Origin: a virus
Virus record (IMG/VR): IMGVR_UViG_3300032163_000005
Coordinates: 30,024 to 94,023 of that record
Length of the DNA stretch: 64,000 bases
Strand: one strand, 5' to 3'
Shown: in pieces, positions 11,836 through 61,622 of the stretch
How positions within the stretch are numbered: the stretch's first letter is position 1
Layout: each line of letters opens with the position of its first letter
Position numbers and translations under genes: made by a program
Notes under the pieces: model-generated
What the model was told of the DNA's origin: nothing
Databases searched by the model: none
Seen by the model: the letters and a program-made list of their open reading frames with translations, nothing else

Positions 11836-13653
11836 CTATGTTGACGTGCGCGCTCCCAGTCGGGCAAGACCGTGTTGCGCGATATCGGTTCGGAACACGA
11901 TGGCCACACGCTCTGGATCTTCGTCTTTGAAATCCTGATTCACATTGATCGAGCCTGTGAAGGTCTGATTGATGTTGGGAGTTTTTCCGATGGGAAGTTT
12001 TGCCTTGGTCGCTTCCGTGCGGCTCGTTTCAACCTGTTCGGCGATGTTGCTCAAACCAAGGGAATTAAGCTTGGCGATGAACGCATCAAGACCTCCCTTG
12101 ACAACATTGTCGCCGCCTTTGACCAATGCATCTTTGAGCTTTTCGCTTCCGTCCAGAAATGTTGCAGCCGCTTTCATGGATTCCGCATCATTGAAGCCGG
12201 ATGCTTCCTCCCATGCTTTGGAAAATGCTGTTGCATTGCCGCCGATCGCCGCACGAGCTTGGGCATTAACGTCTTCCATAATCATCGCGTGATTTTTCAT
12301 CGCGAATTGCATGTCCTTGTCGAAGTCTTCGAGAGCTCCACCTGCATCTGCATAGGCAGCGCGCGCAGATACAACTCCCGCTTTTTTCTCAAACCCAACG
12401 GCACCCTCTTTTGAGCGTACCCCTGCCATCGCAGCTTCTTTGCCTTTGGATAGTGCCTCTTGTTGTGCAGCGGCCTTCCCACCCTCTCCGAGCTTCGAAG
12501 CCTTATCAATCACCGATCCCAAAAAACTGCCCGCTTGCTGAACGCCTTTCACGGTCAGCAACATCACGTCTTTCATGGCCCTAGCAACATCTCTAAAAGA
12601 TTTCGCAAGAAGACCGCGATTGTCATAGATGTATTGAAACGTTGTTCGAAGATCGGCCATTGGTCCTGTCGTGGCGTTCATTTCAATCGCCATACTTTTC
12701 GCGATGCCCATGAGCTCGTCAACAAATGGACCTGCAGCTTTGACTCCGAGAGCCATCGTGTTACCGAAATTCACCGCAATGCTTCCAAGAAGCGCGTGAT
12801 TGTCCTGCAACCATCCATGAACTTTGCCCATAACCGGACCGATGGCTTTGACAATCGGAGCGCCTGCAGCCGCGGCTAGCCGATCAACGAAGAGCTCCAT
12901 TCCCTTGGTCATCTCTCCAATACCAAGAGGAACATCCTTCATCTTTTTACCCATTGCAGCGACAGCCTTTTCCGCCAACTTCATCTGAGCTTCTGGCGAC
13001 ATCTTTTGCATCTGTTGCGCGACAGATTTGGCGTTGCCCTTGAGGAGATGAGTTGCTGAAATCATTCCGACGATTGGATTTTTCGCACGGATGATTCCCA
13101 TCTCAATGGCTTCGAAAGCTTCGGAGATTCCCTCGGCGCCTTGTGGAATGGCGCGACCTGCCGACGCCATGGCTTCTGTGAGCTCGACCGCTTGATCAAT
13201 GGTCTTTCCACCACGTTCAATCACGTTAGTAAATGTCGCCATCATCGCATCTCGAGTTTGTCCCGATGCAAAGGCAACGCTCTCGAGTTGATCTTGAAGA
13301 TCGCCAGCAACGTCCTTCATGTCTTTGAAGGACGTTCCGGACTCATCAAGCAAAGTCAACGTTCCGGCAAGCGCTTTGACTTGAGCAGCGCTCTCCATGT
13401 ACGCGCTTGCAGCGCCAGTCGCGGCACCGATCATTACTGAGCCAGCGGCTACCGCTGCACCTGCGGCAACACCTAATCCGAGCTTCGCGGCGTCACCAAC
13501 TCCACCCCAAATCTTTTTTCCTTCGAGAACGCCGCCATGCCATTTCTTCTGGCTCTTGTTGACATTGGAGATTCCATCTCTGAGCTTTTCAGTCTCCTTC
13601 TTTGCATTGGAGTCAATGACGAGCCGAACGTGAACTTCTGCAGCTTCAGTCAT
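11836..13653 (-). CDS. tape measure protein
   Basis: 605 aa, Ala/Gly/Met-rich helical sequence, follows the tail chaperones. Confidence 0.85.
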   Translation of the reverse strand: MTEAAEVHVRLVIDSNAKKETEKLRDGISNVNKSQKKWHGGVLEGKKIWGGVGDAAKLGLGVAAGAAVAAGSVMIGAATGAASAYMESAAQVKALAGTLTLLDESGTSFKDMKDVAGDLQDQLESVAFASGQTRDAMMATFTNVIERGGKTIDQAVELTEAMASAGRAIPQGAEGISEAFEAIEMGIIRAKNPIVGMISATHLLKGNAKSVAQQMQKMSPEAQMKLAEKAVAAMGKKMKDVPLGIGEMTKGMELFVDRLAAAAGAPIVKAIGPVMGKVHGWLQDNHALLGSIAVNFGNTMALGVKAAGPFVDELMGIAKSMAIEMNATTGPMADLRTTFQYIYDNRGLLAKSFRDVARAMKDVMLLTVKGVQQAGSFLGSVIDKASKLGEGGKAAAQQEALSKGKEAAMAGVRSKEGAVGFEKKAGVVSARAAYADAGGALEDFDKDMQFAMKNHAMIMEDVNAQARAAIGGNATAFSKAWEEASGFNDAESMKAAATFLDGSEKLKDALVKGGDNVVKGGLDAFIAKLNSLGLSNIAEQVETSRTEATKAKLPIGKTPNINQTFTGSINVNQDFKDEDPERVAIVFRTDIAQHGLARLGARTST

Positions 13654-13943
13654 CGCTCCTCCATCAATACATTCTCTTCAGAGACCAATTTCGCAATGAA
13701 ATTCGTTGCCTCAATGAGATCGGTGACTGGGAGATTAGCCCACTGCGTCCACGATTGTCTGCCGTAGCGCGCGCAAAACGCTTTCTGTTTCCTACGTGTA
13801 TTCAAAAGCGCAACGGGATCGATTGCGACTCGCAAATGCCACGACGCATCACTCCACGACTCACACCACGCACCAAAAACAGGCGATGAAAGAAGATCGC
13901 GCTTAGTTACTCGGCCGGCATTGAGATCGTTGAAGTGATGCAA
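13650..13943 (-). CDS. tail assembly chaperone, -1 frameshift extension (gpGT-like)
   Basis: In the -1 frame relative to 13907..14428, no good start of its own, abuts the tape measure gene. Confidence 0.75.
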   Translation of the reverse strand: MHHFNDLNAGRVTKRDLLSSPVFGAWCESWSDASWHLRVAIDPVALLNTRRKQKAFCARYGRQSWTQWANLPVTDLIEATNFIAKLVSEENVLMEER

Positions 13944-26450: not shown

Positions 26451-26487
26451 GCCGAGAGATGAAGCCCTCTCACTAGCTTTGATCTAC
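26451..26487 (-). CRISPR. solitary degenerate copy of the CRISPR repeat
   Basis: 26454..26479 GAGAGATGAAGCCCTCTCACTAGCTT is identical to the array repeat over 26 nt, followed by TGATCTAC versus GATCCAC; same orientation as the array. Confidence 0.9.
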
Positions 26488-56898: not shown

Positions 56899-58599
56899 TC
56901 AACGCATGAGGACAGAGCTCAATCCCTGAGCATCCTTCTGTTCTGACGTGAGCAGACCCCATTTGCGCGCCATCTCACGAGCAAAAAACGAAGACATGAT
57001 GACGTCTGGGATGTGGTCATTGTCTGGCTTGTACTGCAGACAGTGATTGATGAATGCTTCCACCTCAGGATGCACACGCCCAAATTCATCGTTGGGGATG
57101 AGCCACGCGCCATTTGAGAATTCCGTGAAGATGGTCTCAACACCGTAAAGCGGATCGGCTTTGCGCTTCGCCGTCGTCACATACGGACGAACAGGAATCG
57201 AGAGGTCACGCTTGCGGATGAATTGTTGGATGAACCCTTGAGCCGCAATGTCCTCTACGACGATGACGCCACCAAAGAGCTTGTGCTTGAGAATGCACTT
57301 TTCAACGATCACAGGACCTGAGAAGTGTCCTGTCTCGATGTCAAGAATACGCCTTCGTCCATCTGGCAGAACCGCGAATGTGAAGAGAGCGGTCTTGTCG
57401 TGGTGCTTCTCTGTCTTCACTGCGAGGTCCACGCCCGTGAAGACTGCAAGCCCCGCTTGCTTTGCATCGTACGCGTTGAGTCCACGTCCAGGTTCAGGCC
57501 ACTCGGTTACAAACCCGTAGACATGGGCTTTACGAGCGGCTTCTTTGCATCGTTCAATCCACTCCACTTTGCATCGCGCTTCTTCGTCTGAGATCGCCGT
57601 GCACATGTACGCGCGGTTCCACTCACGTAGCGGCGTGACGCGTTTGAGCTTCTGAATGTACTCGGGTGAGAAGACCTCAGGCCAGAGTGGAGCTCCTCTC
57701 GCGTGCTCCCGAAGCCTGAGAGTCATATCCTGAGGATTGTCTGTTCGTGGTGCGACGCTTGGATGATCCCAATACTCGAATGGGCGACCAAGCTGTTTGG
57801 AAATAAGCGCATCTTCCGCGTCATCTTGAATGCGAATCGTCCCATCGATGCTCATGCGCATCGTTGCCCAACCGCGCCGCTCAAATTCATGAACCGCATC
57901 TCGTGGGTTCCAAGGTGTATTGAGCGCGAGGACTCTTGTTTCAGCGGATGGCTCAAGTCGCGTTAGGACCGATGAATCGAGCCATGCAATCGTCTTTGAG
58001 CACCCCTCAGACGTGAGCGTGTTCTCTTGGCTGAGAACATCATCGATGACGATCCAATCAAGACGTGATCCTGCAATCGCACCATCAAGCCCAAGAGCTT
58101 TGAGTGAAGCATCGCGAATGCCCGCTGGCCGATCAACAGTGATAGCCGTTTGCGTCCATGGCTCTCTCGTGCGCTGCGACGGCGCTAGATGCGGAAAGAC
58201 CAAGCGGAGCTCAGCCGATTGGATGATGTAGTCGCTCACCATGCCAAGCACCTTGGAAGCCTGCTCTTGTGTGGCCGAGACGATCGCACCGCGAAGAGAT
58301 GGGTTTCTTCCGAGGAGCCAAAGCGTGACCGCCGCAGACATGAACGTCTTCGCATGACGCACTGGCACGATAAGAACCGCGCGCTTGTGGTGGAGCAAAA
58401 ATGAGAGCGCGACCTTTTGGTGCTCTGCGAGTTGGAGAGGCGTGCGCTTTGTCTCGTGCTTCATCACGAGCTCGAAGAACGCGCCGCAATCCTCTCGAGC
58501 GAGACGAGCCCAGAGATCCAACACTGCACGTGCCTTGTGCACGCGCGCAGAATCGATGGTTTGTGGACCGGATTGCGTCATCTTTTCGCGAGGTTCCAA
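56899..58599 (-). CDS. terL: terminase large subunit
   Basis: Walker A variant PVRHAKT, Walker B WIVIDD, NTPW coupling motif, nuclease GVDLA...D.TA; true start may be ATG 58581. Confidence 0.92.
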   Translation of the reverse strand: MEPREKMTQSGPQTIDSARVHKARAVLDLWARLAREDCGAFFELVMKHETKRTPLQLAEHQKVALSFLLHHKRAVLIVPVRHAKTFMSAAVTLWLLGRNPSLRGAIVSATQEQASKVLGMVSDYIIQSAELRLVFPHLAPSQRTREPWTQTAITVDRPAGIRDASLKALGLDGAIAGSRLDWIVIDDVLSQENTLTSEGCSKTIAWLDSSVLTRLEPSAETRVLALNTPWNPRDAVHEFERRGWATMRMSIDGTIRIQDDAEDALISKQLGRPFEYWDHPSVAPRTDNPQDMTLRLREHARGAPLWPEVFSPEYIQKLKRVTPLREWNRAYMCTAISDEEARCKVEWIERCKEAARKAHVYGFVTEWPEPGRGLNAYDAKQAGLAVFTGVDLAVKTEKHHDKTALFTFAVLPDGRRRILDIETGHFSGPVIVEKCILKHKLFGGVIVVEDIAAQGFIQQFIRKRDLSIPVRPYVTTAKRKADPLYGVETIFTEFSNGAWLIPNDEFGRVHPEVEAFINHCLQYKPDNDHIPDVIMSSFFAREMARKWGLLTSEQKDAQGLSSVLMR

Positions 58600-58600
58600 G

Positions 58601-58624
58601 TTTAGACAGATCGATCTGTCTAAA
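58601..58624. repeat. 24-bp palindrome, copy 6
   Basis: Exact; fills the terS-terL gap. Confidence 0.95.
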
Positions 58625-58626
58625 AT

Positions 58627-59313
58627 CTATCCCCGGTGGGCAGCGCCATTTGTTCCGCCGTTTGACATCGTCGAAGGATTGGGAGGTTTGGGCAGGAGAG
58701 TCGTGAGCGGTTCTCCGAGCTCCTTCGCCTTGCCCTCTGCAAGCTCCATGATGCGATCGAATGATTGCTCGTAATGCGCCATCTGCTCAGGCGTGAGGGA
58801 TGCGATCACCTCCGCAATGGCATGACGATGAACAGCGTCCACCTCGATGCGCACAGGTTCGTAGTTGCCCTGGATACGCGCGATCATGTCTTCGTAGCGT
58901 GACCGAGCCATGTGGTCGGGTTTCTCGAGCCACTTGCCATTTGGCCCACGCACGCCTTTGCATTCTCGAAGGGCTTTGGTGATCCTTCGAGCTTGCTGCG
59001 TCTTGGTGTATGGCCGCTCGGTTTCAGCGTCCTCGAGAAGCTTTTGCTGTGCTCGTTCACGTAGCAACGTGACACGATTACGACCGATGACGTGATCGAT
59101 TTTGCCCGCGTTGTAAGCCTCTTCAAAGACCTTCACAATCTCGCGGTCGGTTGCGCCTTCAACCCATGCATCCGTCACAAGCTGCATCTGTCTCACAACT
59201 TGGTGAGCCGTAAACCGCTTCGCAGATTTCTTTTCAGCGACGGCTTTCTGCGCCATCGCACGCGTTGTTTCAACCCGTCGATCGACAGTACCCGGCATCT
59301 TTCGCTTCGACAT
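58627..59313 (-). CDS. terminase small subunit (putative)
   Basis: 228-aa helical protein directly upstream of terL. Confidence 0.6.
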   Translation of the reverse strand: MSKRKMPGTVDRRVETTRAMAQKAVAEKKSAKRFTAHQVVRQMQLVTDAWVEGATDREIVKVFEEAYNAGKIDHVIGRNRVTLLRERAQQKLLEDAETERPYTKTQQARRITKALRECKGVRGPNGKWLEKPDHMARSRYEDMIARIQGNYEPVRIEVDAVHRHAIAEVIASLTPEQMAHYEQSFDRIMELAEGKAKELGEPLTTLLPKPPNPSTMSNGGTNGAAHRG

Positions 59314-59382: not shown

Positions 59383-59862
59383 GTTGAGAGATGAAGCTCT
59401 CTCACTAGCTTGATCCACCGGTGTTCCTGTCGAGGGGACCAACTACTTCCACTACTCGTTGAGAGATGAAGCCCTCTCACTAGCTTGATCCACGGATCAC
59501 CCACTCGGGATCGTCCGCGTCGAGCGCAAGTTGAGAGATGAAGCCCTCTCACTAGCTTGATCCACGAAACCCAGTGCGAGGCGAACGTGTGGCGCAGATC
59601 GTGGTTGAGAGATGAAGCCCTCTCACTAGCTTGATCCACCTTCTCGGGCTCGAGCCCCATCGCTTCGGCCTCTTCGCGTTGTTGAGAGATGAAGCCCTCT
59701 CACTAGCTTGATCCACAGATGGATGCTCGCCGCGTTGGTACACGCAATTGCTTGTTGAGAGATGAAGCCCTCTCACTAGCTTGATCCACCCGATTCGCGG
59801 AGTGTCCATCTCTCACCCTCTTGAACGTTGAGAGATGAAGCCCTCTCACTAGCTTGATCCAC
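59383..59862 (-). CRISPR. CRISPR array, 7 x 36-nt repeats GTGGATCAAGCTAGTGAGAGGGCTTCATCTCTCAAC, 6 spacers of 36-41 nt
   Basis: Repeats start (plus coordinates) at 59383, 59458, 59530, 59604, 59681, 59754, 59827. TGAGAG/CTCTCA stem. The single variant repeat at 59383 marks the trailer, supporting minus orientation. Confidence 0.98.
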
Positions 59863-59881: not shown

Positions 59882-61375
59882 TCATTCCGCAGCATTCAAC
59901 TCCGGTTCGCGAGAGGTGGCAACCATCCGAAGATGATCCCCCGTTCCGATTCCATCAGCATTCTTTTTCTCTTTTCGTTTTGATACTTTGCGCGTGCGAG
60001 CACGAGGGGGGTTTCCATCACCAATCCACCGCTCGCTTTGATAGCGGAGAACCCGTGCGGCATTTTCATCCTGATGATGCTCGGCCCCGCACTCACATTT
60101 CCAGCGAAGCGCTGGACCAACCTTTTCTGCACGAATCAACCCGCACGATGAACAAGTCATTGTAGTGAATGCACTTGGAAGCCAATCAACACGAGCTGCC
60201 CCAAACCGTTGCAGGATGACGGTTTGGAGAATGTGTATGGCCGCACTCGAGCGCCATCGTTCAAGTGATGCTGTGTCGCCTTCTCCGACCCAAGCTTGCA
60301 TGGGCATGTCTTCAAGTGCGACGTATCGATATTTTCGCGCAAGTGCATCTGCGAATCGTTGGTAGGCATCAAGTCGGCGTCGAATAGCTCGATCTCGGAC
60401 ACCTGCTTCGATGTCTTCGAGATGGCGATCACGTTCCCGCCACCACAGTGCACCTAGATCTTGAGTCGTGAGCGCGATCCGTCGCATGCGCTCTTTGTCC
60501 TTCCAACGAAGCGCATGCTGCGCACCGGGAAGCTGTGCTTCCGATACATGTCGTTTGGCTTCGTCAAAATTGACATCTCGTATGCTCCGGATCGAATCGG
60601 AATATTGGAACGCCCGGATCGTATCGATGTGGAGAGACCCGACATCAACTACACCGTTCTCTTCTCCGTCGTAGGTCGCCACGAGCATGCCGAGCTCACC
60701 ATTTCTTCGCCAACCGACGTCTACACCGACAATGCCCAACCCAATGTCCTTTTTCCTATCAGGCTCAAATTCGATGGTGACCAACGCTTCCCAACGAAAT
60801 CGATGTCCCGAGCGCGTTCGTTGAACAGCAACTTGTTTGACAACAGCGCCATCCGGGAAATCCCGATGAAGTTTGATGGGCCATGTGATCGTTTGGCCAG
60901 CCGCCAGCGCGCCAACATGGATGGTGAGCTCGGCGTGTCGTCTGGCATTGAGGCTTGTGAGAGAAATACGTTTGCTCGTCGTCCAATCCAACGCTGGAAA
61001 TTGAGCTCGCGAATGAATCTCTCCGCCAATGGATCCTGTGCCATCCCAATGCTGCATCTTGATTGGATCAAGACGACTCGCTTTGCTCGCTGAGAGCATT
61101 GCAGCCTCAATAAGCCAATAAGTACCCGCGTCGAGTAGATGACCCCTACGTCGTCGTGCCCCCCGGATCCTCTCATTCTGAGTTTGATGAGTGAACGCCA
61201 TGACATGAGATGCATCATCCTTGCTCTCAAGGAGTGTGCGAAAATCTCGTTTGGCCGCGTTGTAAATCCGTCGCAACTCTTCACGATAGAGCCACGCTTG
61301 CCCGAGCAATTGAAGGGCCCGGTCCATTTCTTTGGGAGCCCGGCATCCGAATTTGTAGACCCTATTTTCAATCAT
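59882..61375 (-). CDS. cas12: compact type V CRISPR effector, Cas12m (V-U1)-like, 497 aa
   Basis: RuvC-I VGVDVGWR, RuvC-II VALED, Zn finger CSSC...CEC, RuvC-III QDENAA; WDGTG and LHR.FP motifs recalled from Cas12m; AAGGA RBS before ATG 61375; array 19 nt downstream. Confidence 0.85.
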   Translation of the reverse strand: MIENRVYKFGCRAPKEMDRALQLLGQAWLYREELRRIYNAAKRDFRTLLESKDDASHVMAFTHQTQNERIRGARRRRGHLLDAGTYWLIEAAMLSASKASRLDPIKMQHWDGTGSIGGEIHSRAQFPALDWTTSKRISLTSLNARRHAELTIHVGALAAGQTITWPIKLHRDFPDGAVVKQVAVQRTRSGHRFRWEALVTIEFEPDRKKDIGLGIVGVDVGWRRNGELGMLVATYDGEENGVVDVGSLHIDTIRAFQYSDSIRSIRDVNFDEAKRHVSEAQLPGAQHALRWKDKERMRRIALTTQDLGALWWRERDRHLEDIEAGVRDRAIRRRLDAYQRFADALARKYRYVALEDMPMQAWVGEGDTASLERWRSSAAIHILQTVILQRFGAARVDWLPSAFTTMTCSSCGLIRAEKVGPALRWKCECGAEHHQDENAARVLRYQSERWIGDGNPPRARTRKVSKRKEKKNADGIGTGDHLRMVATSREPELNAAE

Positions 61376-61433: not shown

Positions 61434-61622
61434 TCACTCTTCCGCCTCCTGCATCTTCGCTTCGAAGTCCCTGAGCTCCGGTGCTGGCTTGTGATTCGTT
61501 TTGAAGATCTCGCAGATCCACTCGAACGCATCTTGATAGGTGCCATCACCCGCACGAACAATGTCTGCGACTCGCGCCCATGCTTTGGCGTTACCACTGA
61601 GAATGCGCTGTTCAAAATTCAT
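61434..61622 (-). CDS. small hypothetical protein upstream of cas12
   Basis: 62 aa, ATG start. Confidence 0.55.
   Translation of the reverse strand: MNFEQRILSGNAKAWARVADIVRAGDGTYQDAFEWICEIFKTNHKPAPELRDFEAKMQEAEE

Follow-up and report, generated by a model that had tools for sequence, protein, structure and literature searches.

What does a phage that has no tyrosine integrase gene do with a CRISPR spacer that reads as the catalytic box of one? The question is raised by a 64,000-nt window, the whole stretch of DNA analyzed here, which spans bases 30024-94023 of the IMG/VR virus record IMGVR_UViG_3300032163_000005. This record is a complete 94,023-bp phage genome with 127-bp direct terminal repeats and a GC content of 56%, which originates from sediment metagenomes and is referred to below as the sediment phage. 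On the minus strand of the window lies a CRISPR array (59383..59862) that consists of seven 36-nt repeats, reading GTGGATCAAGCTAGTGAGAGGGCTTCATCTCTCAAC on that strand, with six unique spacers (36-41 nt) between them. The sole non-identical repeat is the copy most distal to the neighboring cas12m-like gene (59383-59418), which carries one mismatch. Spacer 3 by plus-strand count, which is the fourth from the cas12m-proximal end, is a 38-nt guide on the minus strand (59566..59603) flanked by two exact 36-nt repeat copies (59530-59565 and 59604-59639), and frame 1 of its reverse complement was translated as HDLRHTFASHWV. This confirms the initial annotation, which had read the minus strand of 59566-59603 as HDLRHTFASHW, box II of the tyrosine integrases. 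Its statement that the window holds no tyrosine integrase gene was borne out as well, and extends to the whole 94-kb phage genome, in which no match to PF00589 (tyrosine integrase) was found.

Statistically, the motif H-x-L-R-H-[ST]-[FY]-[AG] would arise by chance in any of the six spacers and in any frame with a probability of ~1.8e-6 at the base composition of the window, and spacer 3 is the only six-frame occurrence of box II in the 94-kb genome. Given this probability (P ~2e-6) and the lack of a second occurrence, the integrase motif in spacer 3 was taken as real and not as a product of chance; that one of six spacers falls in a recognizable motif is a post hoc observation. Searching the phage genome with the array spacers found no self-targets. 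Only one other repeat-like copy was found in the phage genome, a solitary one on the minus strand at 26451..26487, 33 kb from the array and intergenic between virion genes. It is direct, not inverted, and has an intact helix and one inserted base.

That the array belongs to the phage is seen from its surroundings: a packaging block (56899..59313) lies directly downstream on the same strand, comprising a 228-aa ORF (58627-59313, minus) and the terminase large subunit gene (56899-58599, minus), so that the cas12m module is embedded in the phage genome. A ParB-like gene and the terminase large subunit gene come after the cas12m/array module on the same strand. The terminase large subunit of the sediment phage has just 22-24% identity to isolated phages. 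Its RecA (12624-13739 of the whole record, outside the window) has 377 relatives at E<=1e-30, and many among the top 120 listed are on contigs of ~40-120 kb, with none above 121 kb, a size range that points to a large group of uncultured 90-100-kb phages akin to the sediment phage. Contigs from three sediment DNA runs were fragmentary, broke inside the array and gave no information on variation among spacers.

Immediately upstream of the array, its stop codon 19 nt away, lies the gene of a Cas12m-like effector of 497 aa (59882..61375, minus; ATG at 61375). The open frame extends further to a TTG at 61615, giving a longest frame of 577 aa; the 497-aa form was preferred because the ATG at 61375 is where the alignment starts for 38 metagenomic relatives (45-61% identity), all of ~500 aa. 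The effector matched the PDB Cas12m 23vw (E=2.5e-21 as a single sequence and 2.3e-47 with the clade profile), PADLOC Cas12u1, an older name for Cas12m (3.7e-39), and Pfam Cas12f1-like_TNB (8e-9), and is thus a Cas12m homologue with a C-terminal RuvC and zinc-finger (TNB) domain. The RuvC residues D219, E355 and D436, together with the four cysteines of the CxxC...CxC zinc finger, showed no variation across the clade. Characterized Cas12m proteins, D-E-D forms included, bind without cutting, use TTN or other short PAMs, need no tracrRNA and read 17-18 bp (PMC11013384, PMC10442227), and none of the assayed D-E-D, H-D-D and N-D-D forms cut (PMC11013384). With its invariant D-E-D triad, the effector of the 497-aa clade may be capable of cutting.

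Neither protein nor profile searches found relatives of the effector in IMG/VR, and four JGI loci with effector relatives were recovered, among which only the gene, and not the flanks, is shared. No significant integrase similarity was found in the spacers of three related arrays. In two of these loci, extra repeat-like copies occur upstream of cas12m: at 291-384 and 3926-4025 in L023, and at 310-1064 in L024, where approximately ten copies are irregularly spaced at 61-124 nt and two units are near-duplicates. In both loci they stand apart from the regular downstream array, and each set could be a second array whose spacers are short, or else serve as regulatory handles. The array of L025 (6503-7491) is degenerate, with repeats varying at many positions and a 6-bp helix kept by compensatory changes; a simple repeat parse gave spacers of ~2 to 133 nt, the longest of which includes unparsed repeat-like copies.

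Which strand of spacer 3 is the guide was evaluated against the known crRNA architecture. In Cas12m2, the crRNA contains a 36-nt repeat-derived scaffold, in which G(-23) pairs with A(-2) and nucleotides -22 to -17 pair with -8 to -3 (Omura et al., PMC10442227), and the complex forms a 17-bp heteroduplex beside a 5'-TTN PAM (PMC10442227), which lies on the non-target strand in both MmCas12m2 and GoCas12m (PMC10442227, PMC11013384). On the minus strand, the repeat of the sediment phage has a G at -23, an A at -2, and UGAGAG (-22 to -17) opposite CUCUCA (-8 to -3). When 25 repeat copies of the sediment phage and three related JGI loci (four loci in all) were aligned, the helix was found to be 96.7% paired, and five of its six pairs showed double (compensatory) changes, 39 in total; none of 500 shuffles was as good as the observed pairing, and every slid register collapsed. 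G-U pairs, which only the minus strand allows, were also present in the helix. In 4/4 loci the array lies downstream of cas12m on the same strand, ~20 nt past its stop, and in the sediment phage the degenerate repeat is the cas12m-distal one. Based on the Cas12m2-like positions, the covariation, the array-after-gene layout and the distal degenerate repeat, the guide is the minus strand, 5'-CACGAUCUGCGCCACACG...-3'. In full, the spacer 3 guide reads 5'-CACGATCTGCGCCACACGTTCGCCTCGCACTGGGTTTC-3', corresponding to the sense strand of box II (HDLRHTFASHWV) of the integrase. Read in this direction, the guide has the same sense as the integrase mRNA and is predicted to pair with the template strand, its PAM side falling at the codon that precedes the first His.

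The source of the spacer was then sought among sequenced genomes. No exact match to the full 38-mer was found in the 185,579 GTDB species genomes, and a 30-nt core of it had 0 matches in both the GTDB species genomes and the JGI metagenomes; likewise, no full-length protospacer with <=2 mismatches was found in IMG/VR, the GTDB species genomes, the JGI metagenomes, isolated phages or plasmids. The nearest match, and the only IMG/VR contig matching the core, is IMGVR_UViG_3300027985_000974, with 33/38 identical positions and a 30-nt contiguous run. It falls in a tyrosine integrase gene (phrog_1, 2e-71; PF00589) at ...ITFHDLRHTFASHWMMGGG, and its mismatches comprise one synonymous change at guide position 3 and four within positions 34-38. 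The same contig was the sole IMG/VR match to a degenerate HDLRHTFASHW pattern in which only CTN Leu, CGN Arg and TCN Ser codons were allowed. Since the guide has 7-19 mismatches to each of 120 sampled HDLRHTF sites and five to this contig, the match reflects kinship with the true source and not luck of codon usage. Among isolated phages and plasmids, the whole array had marginal matches only (E 0.1-0.5), all but one on spacer 3, and wherever the record was annotated beneath such a match the gene was an integrase; the exception was a chance-level match of spacer 2 to an unannotated Burkholderia replicon. Best matches outside tyrosine recombinase genes would have refuted the initial annotation, and there were none: every database match to spacer 3 or to its first 20 nt was in box II of such a gene, and spacer 3 matched box II (HxLRH[ST]FA) of a PF00589 gene at both the nucleotide and the peptide level.

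These nucleotide-level matches also refute the view that the resemblance is accidental and spacer 3 unrelated to integrases. The lack of a perfect protospacer, and nothing more, speaks for that view; against it stand the low motif probability in the six spacers, the 30-nt exact run in an integrase, and the finding that all 19 viral contigs matching the guide seed do so in box II (see below), and we give it practically no credence.

The contig with the nearest match is 42.7 kb in length, with 68% GC and 144-bp terminal repeats, and was assigned to a temperate tailed phage because it encodes a tape measure, a portal, a head protease and the integrase. It has no further sequence or gene in common with the sediment phage, and the other five spacers did not match it. 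Given the mismatch at guide position 3 and the difference in GC content (68% vs 56%), the two phages may or may not have a host in common. In the nearest-match integrase gene, the 22 nt 5' of the protospacer (465-486, GEGYITF) resemble the 3' end of the repeat (59604-59639), with 15 matches and one gap, and the BLAST alignment of spacer 3 to this phage already ran on into the repeat. The score of this repeat-like flank was equaled by 5/12,000 random windows of the nearest-match phage; the resemblance may be due to chance, or may hint at spacer gain by recombination at a repeat-like sequence in an array without Cas1/Cas2.

The integrase of the nearest match has 1,247 metagenomic relatives at E<=1e-20, and the top 120 of these carry the signature [RVT]-F-HDLRHTFASHW-[VM]. 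Exact HDLRHTFASHWV (12/12 residues) was found in 35/120 of these top members, and a Phe codon (TTY) precedes the His in nearly all of them, with three exceptions among those listed. Of the seven named members among these, six are Deltaproteobacteria/Myxococcota/Polyangia MAGs and one is a Limisphaerales MAG; some members are found on contigs of up to 822 kb and are therefore integrated elements. As a separate observation, one plus-strand frame of spacer 1 (59419-59457) reads RCSCRGDQLLPLL, with a 7-aa match to this integrase family, and DQLLPLL and GDQLYPL are present in members of the family (E 0.4-1, small database). The residues upstream do not match, and this resemblance is probably a chance one.

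Could the guide instead act, as a regulator or in attack, on a host gene such as XerC/XerD or some domesticated recombinase, or else on an integrase of the phage itself? Box II is common to all tyrosine recombinases and Cas12m-type binders could serve as repressors, both of which are compatible with such a role. The evidence on the identity of the target points elsewhere, as the sediment phage has neither a PF00589 gene nor a second copy of the sequence, so that its own integrase was rejected as the target. Host XerC/XerD were likewise rejected as the source: the nearest integrase scored 72-80 bits where the XerC/XerD model cut-offs are ~330, and the signature FHDLRHTFASHW[VM] belongs to a phage-integrase family, the peptide HDLRHTFASHWV being the signature of that one family. 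Together with the lack of any match to the 30-nt core in 185,579 species genomes, this makes a host or self target very improbable. The target proposed by the initial annotation was thus upheld in so far as it was integrase box II in a different mobile element, of which a temperate tailed phage is the nearest, and dropped in so far as it was a host Xer.

The 5' flank, which the initial annotation had proposed to read for a PAM, is TTC (a Phe codon) directly before the nearest match, which is TTN-compatible, as read from one spacer and an imperfect match. The predicted PAM of the spacer 3 target is set by the conserved Phe codon of the integrase family.

To how many integrases could such a guide apply? 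The first 20 nt of the guide were found exactly in 19 IMG/VR contigs, which represent ~14 distinct integrases and range in GC from 51% to 68%. In all 19 the match is inside integrase box II (HDLRHTF), and in 11 a TTY lies directly 5' of it. The corresponding 20-nt seeds of spacers 4 and 6 had 0 matches in IMG/VR, so that the number of potential targets is unusually high for spacer 3. Among the 120 sampled HDLRHTF sites, only two (~2%) matched the first 18 guide nt exactly and 19 were one base off, and 37% had a TTN 5' of the site. The initial annotation had anticipated an activity both broad and hard to escape. Breadth was retained for the viral contigs that share the exact 20-nt seed and is limited by the ~2% of sampled sites that match the first 18 nt. 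Difficulty of escape was not retained, because six of the 18 read positions of the guide are wobble sites free to vary, and the nearest match is already synonymously changed at guide position 3. That the effector is of the DNA-binding Cas12m kind was not part of the initial annotation, and it alters the probable mechanism.

The same data bear on a more modest account, in which the spacer does derive from an integrase and its position in box II is incidental, either a random pick or ready-made from an earlier carrier, with no special breadth and in an array that may be a slowly decaying relic within a phage unable to acquire spacers. Several findings fit this account: Cas1 and Cas2 are absent from the phage genome; related cas12m loci have the gene alone and not the flanks in common; the three related arrays have no integrase-like spacer content; the first 18 nt are exact in so few of the sampled HDLRHTF sites; and no exact target was found in the GTDB genomes or the JGI metagenomes. 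Other findings weigh against it. Box II makes up ~0.1% of a 40-kb temperate phage, which renders a random landing there unlikely; the repeats are perfect save the distal one and the clade shows no change in the catalytic and zinc residues of the effector, and this conservation indicates that the system is maintained; and the 20-nt seed matches 19 viral contigs whereas those of two other spacers match none. On balance, we consider an incidental position somewhat unlikely. In a related scenario for its origin, another element could have handed down the array together with the cas12m module, given that the related loci have no common flanks around the gene that they share.

What has been observed comprises the array, the family of the effector, the strand of the guide, its origin in an integrase and a PAM-compatible flank at the nearest match. 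We return to the reading that we consider likely: spacer 3 is a genuine guide derived from an integrase of the F-HDLRHTFASHW[VM] family, with which the phage's own Cas12m would bind a rival's integrase gene as a roadblock. Temperate phages and other integrated elements would be the carriers of this source family. The guide would be read off the minus strand, probably on a transcript running from cas12m through the array, and loaded into the phage's own Cas12m-like protein. The complex is expected to recognize the TTY of the Phe codon as its PAM and then the H-D-L-R-H-T codons, pairing with the integrase template strand. Judging from the characterized Cas12m proteins, it would most likely sit on the rival gene as a roadblock without cutting, lowering integrase expression and perhaps also replication through the site. 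A co-resident temperate element or satellite would thereby be hampered in its integration or excision while the integrase-less phage grows. Binding instead of cutting, the biological effect and the presence of the target in the same host are what we infer.

For dCas9 and dCas12a roadblocks, the effective orientation is that in which RNA polymerase arrives on the PAM-proximal side. A polymerase transcribing the integrase gene would likewise meet the PAM-proximal side of the spacer 3 complex first, which by analogy would be the effective orientation, a weak argument given a single spacer. A bolder version of the roadblock reading, which we consider quite unlikely, would make the non-cutting Cas12m of a virulent phage a natural form of CRISPR interference against mobilization that silences integrases across many members of the family, with spacers gained at repeat-like sequence. 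In that case the conserved Phe codon would serve as the PAM and the 17-18 read bases would be the H-D-L-R-H-T codons of an integrase family common in the hosts, and RNA polymerase, meeting the PAM side first, would leave the integrase of resident or co-infecting temperate elements or satellites switched off.

Compared with known systems, the case is clear but has precedent, being that of a mobile element aiming CRISPR at another mobile element. With the lambda Int/Xer box II (PF00589), spacer 3 shares the encoded H-x-L-R-H-T-F-A, and all of its nucleotide matches fall on this motif; unlike the lambda Int/Xer genes, it is a 38-nt array fragment and not a gene, in a phage without such a recombinase. 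With type V-M Cas12m (MmCas12m2, GoCas12m and MsCas12m; Wu 2022, PMC10442227, PMC11013384), the system shares a homologous effector, a 36-nt repeat with the helix at the same positions, a predicted independence of tracrRNA, a TTN-compatible flank at the nearest target, a lack of adaptation genes and a location on a mobile element. It differs in that the protein of the sediment phage is ~100 aa shorter (497 aa), belongs to a metagenomic clade known from sequence alone and resides in a phage. The first report of a Cas12m encoded by a phage, from September 2026, concerns myxophage MV-1 and gives no spacer target (bioRxiv 10.64898/2026.09.14.751636). MvCas12m of MV-1 is likewise phage-encoded, has a D-E-D triad and lies next to an array without cas1/2/4; MV-1, however, is temperate and integrase-encoding, its effector has 610 aa, and 0/8 of its spacers have a protospacer (bioRxiv 10.64898/2026.09.14.751636), whereas one spacer of the sediment phage could be assigned to a gene family.

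What is new here is that one guide, in the 497-aa Cas12m clade, was assigned to a gene (integrase), a motif (box II), a strand and a PAM-compatible flank. This offers a concrete, testable idea for the role of phage Cas12m, namely interference with rival integrating elements, and a natural set of guide, PAM and target for work on the clade. As Cas12m-type proteins bind rather than cut, the choice of the bound gene matters, which makes an integrase a meaningful one. Conceptually the gain is modest, since CRISPR systems of phages directed against integrative elements are already known from ICP1 and PLE and from the Cas12r of phage Lalka. Like the type I-F system of ICP1 against PLE (PMC5481146, PMC9040626), the sediment phage would direct an array of its own against integrase-bearing elements of the host, and with the Lalka Cas12r against Thermus integrative elements (bioRxiv 10.64898/2026.04.20.719267) it shares a type V effector, a lack of adaptation genes and, as predicted, integrase-bearing targets. 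In both ICP1 and Lalka, the protospacers are spread over the element, those of Lalka lying upstream of the integrase gene (bioRxiv 10.64898/2026.04.20.719267), and the effectors cut or degrade DNA. In contrast, the guide of the sediment phage lies on the codons of the integrase catalytic box itself, and its effector, judged by its relatives, would come from a family of non-cutting binders.
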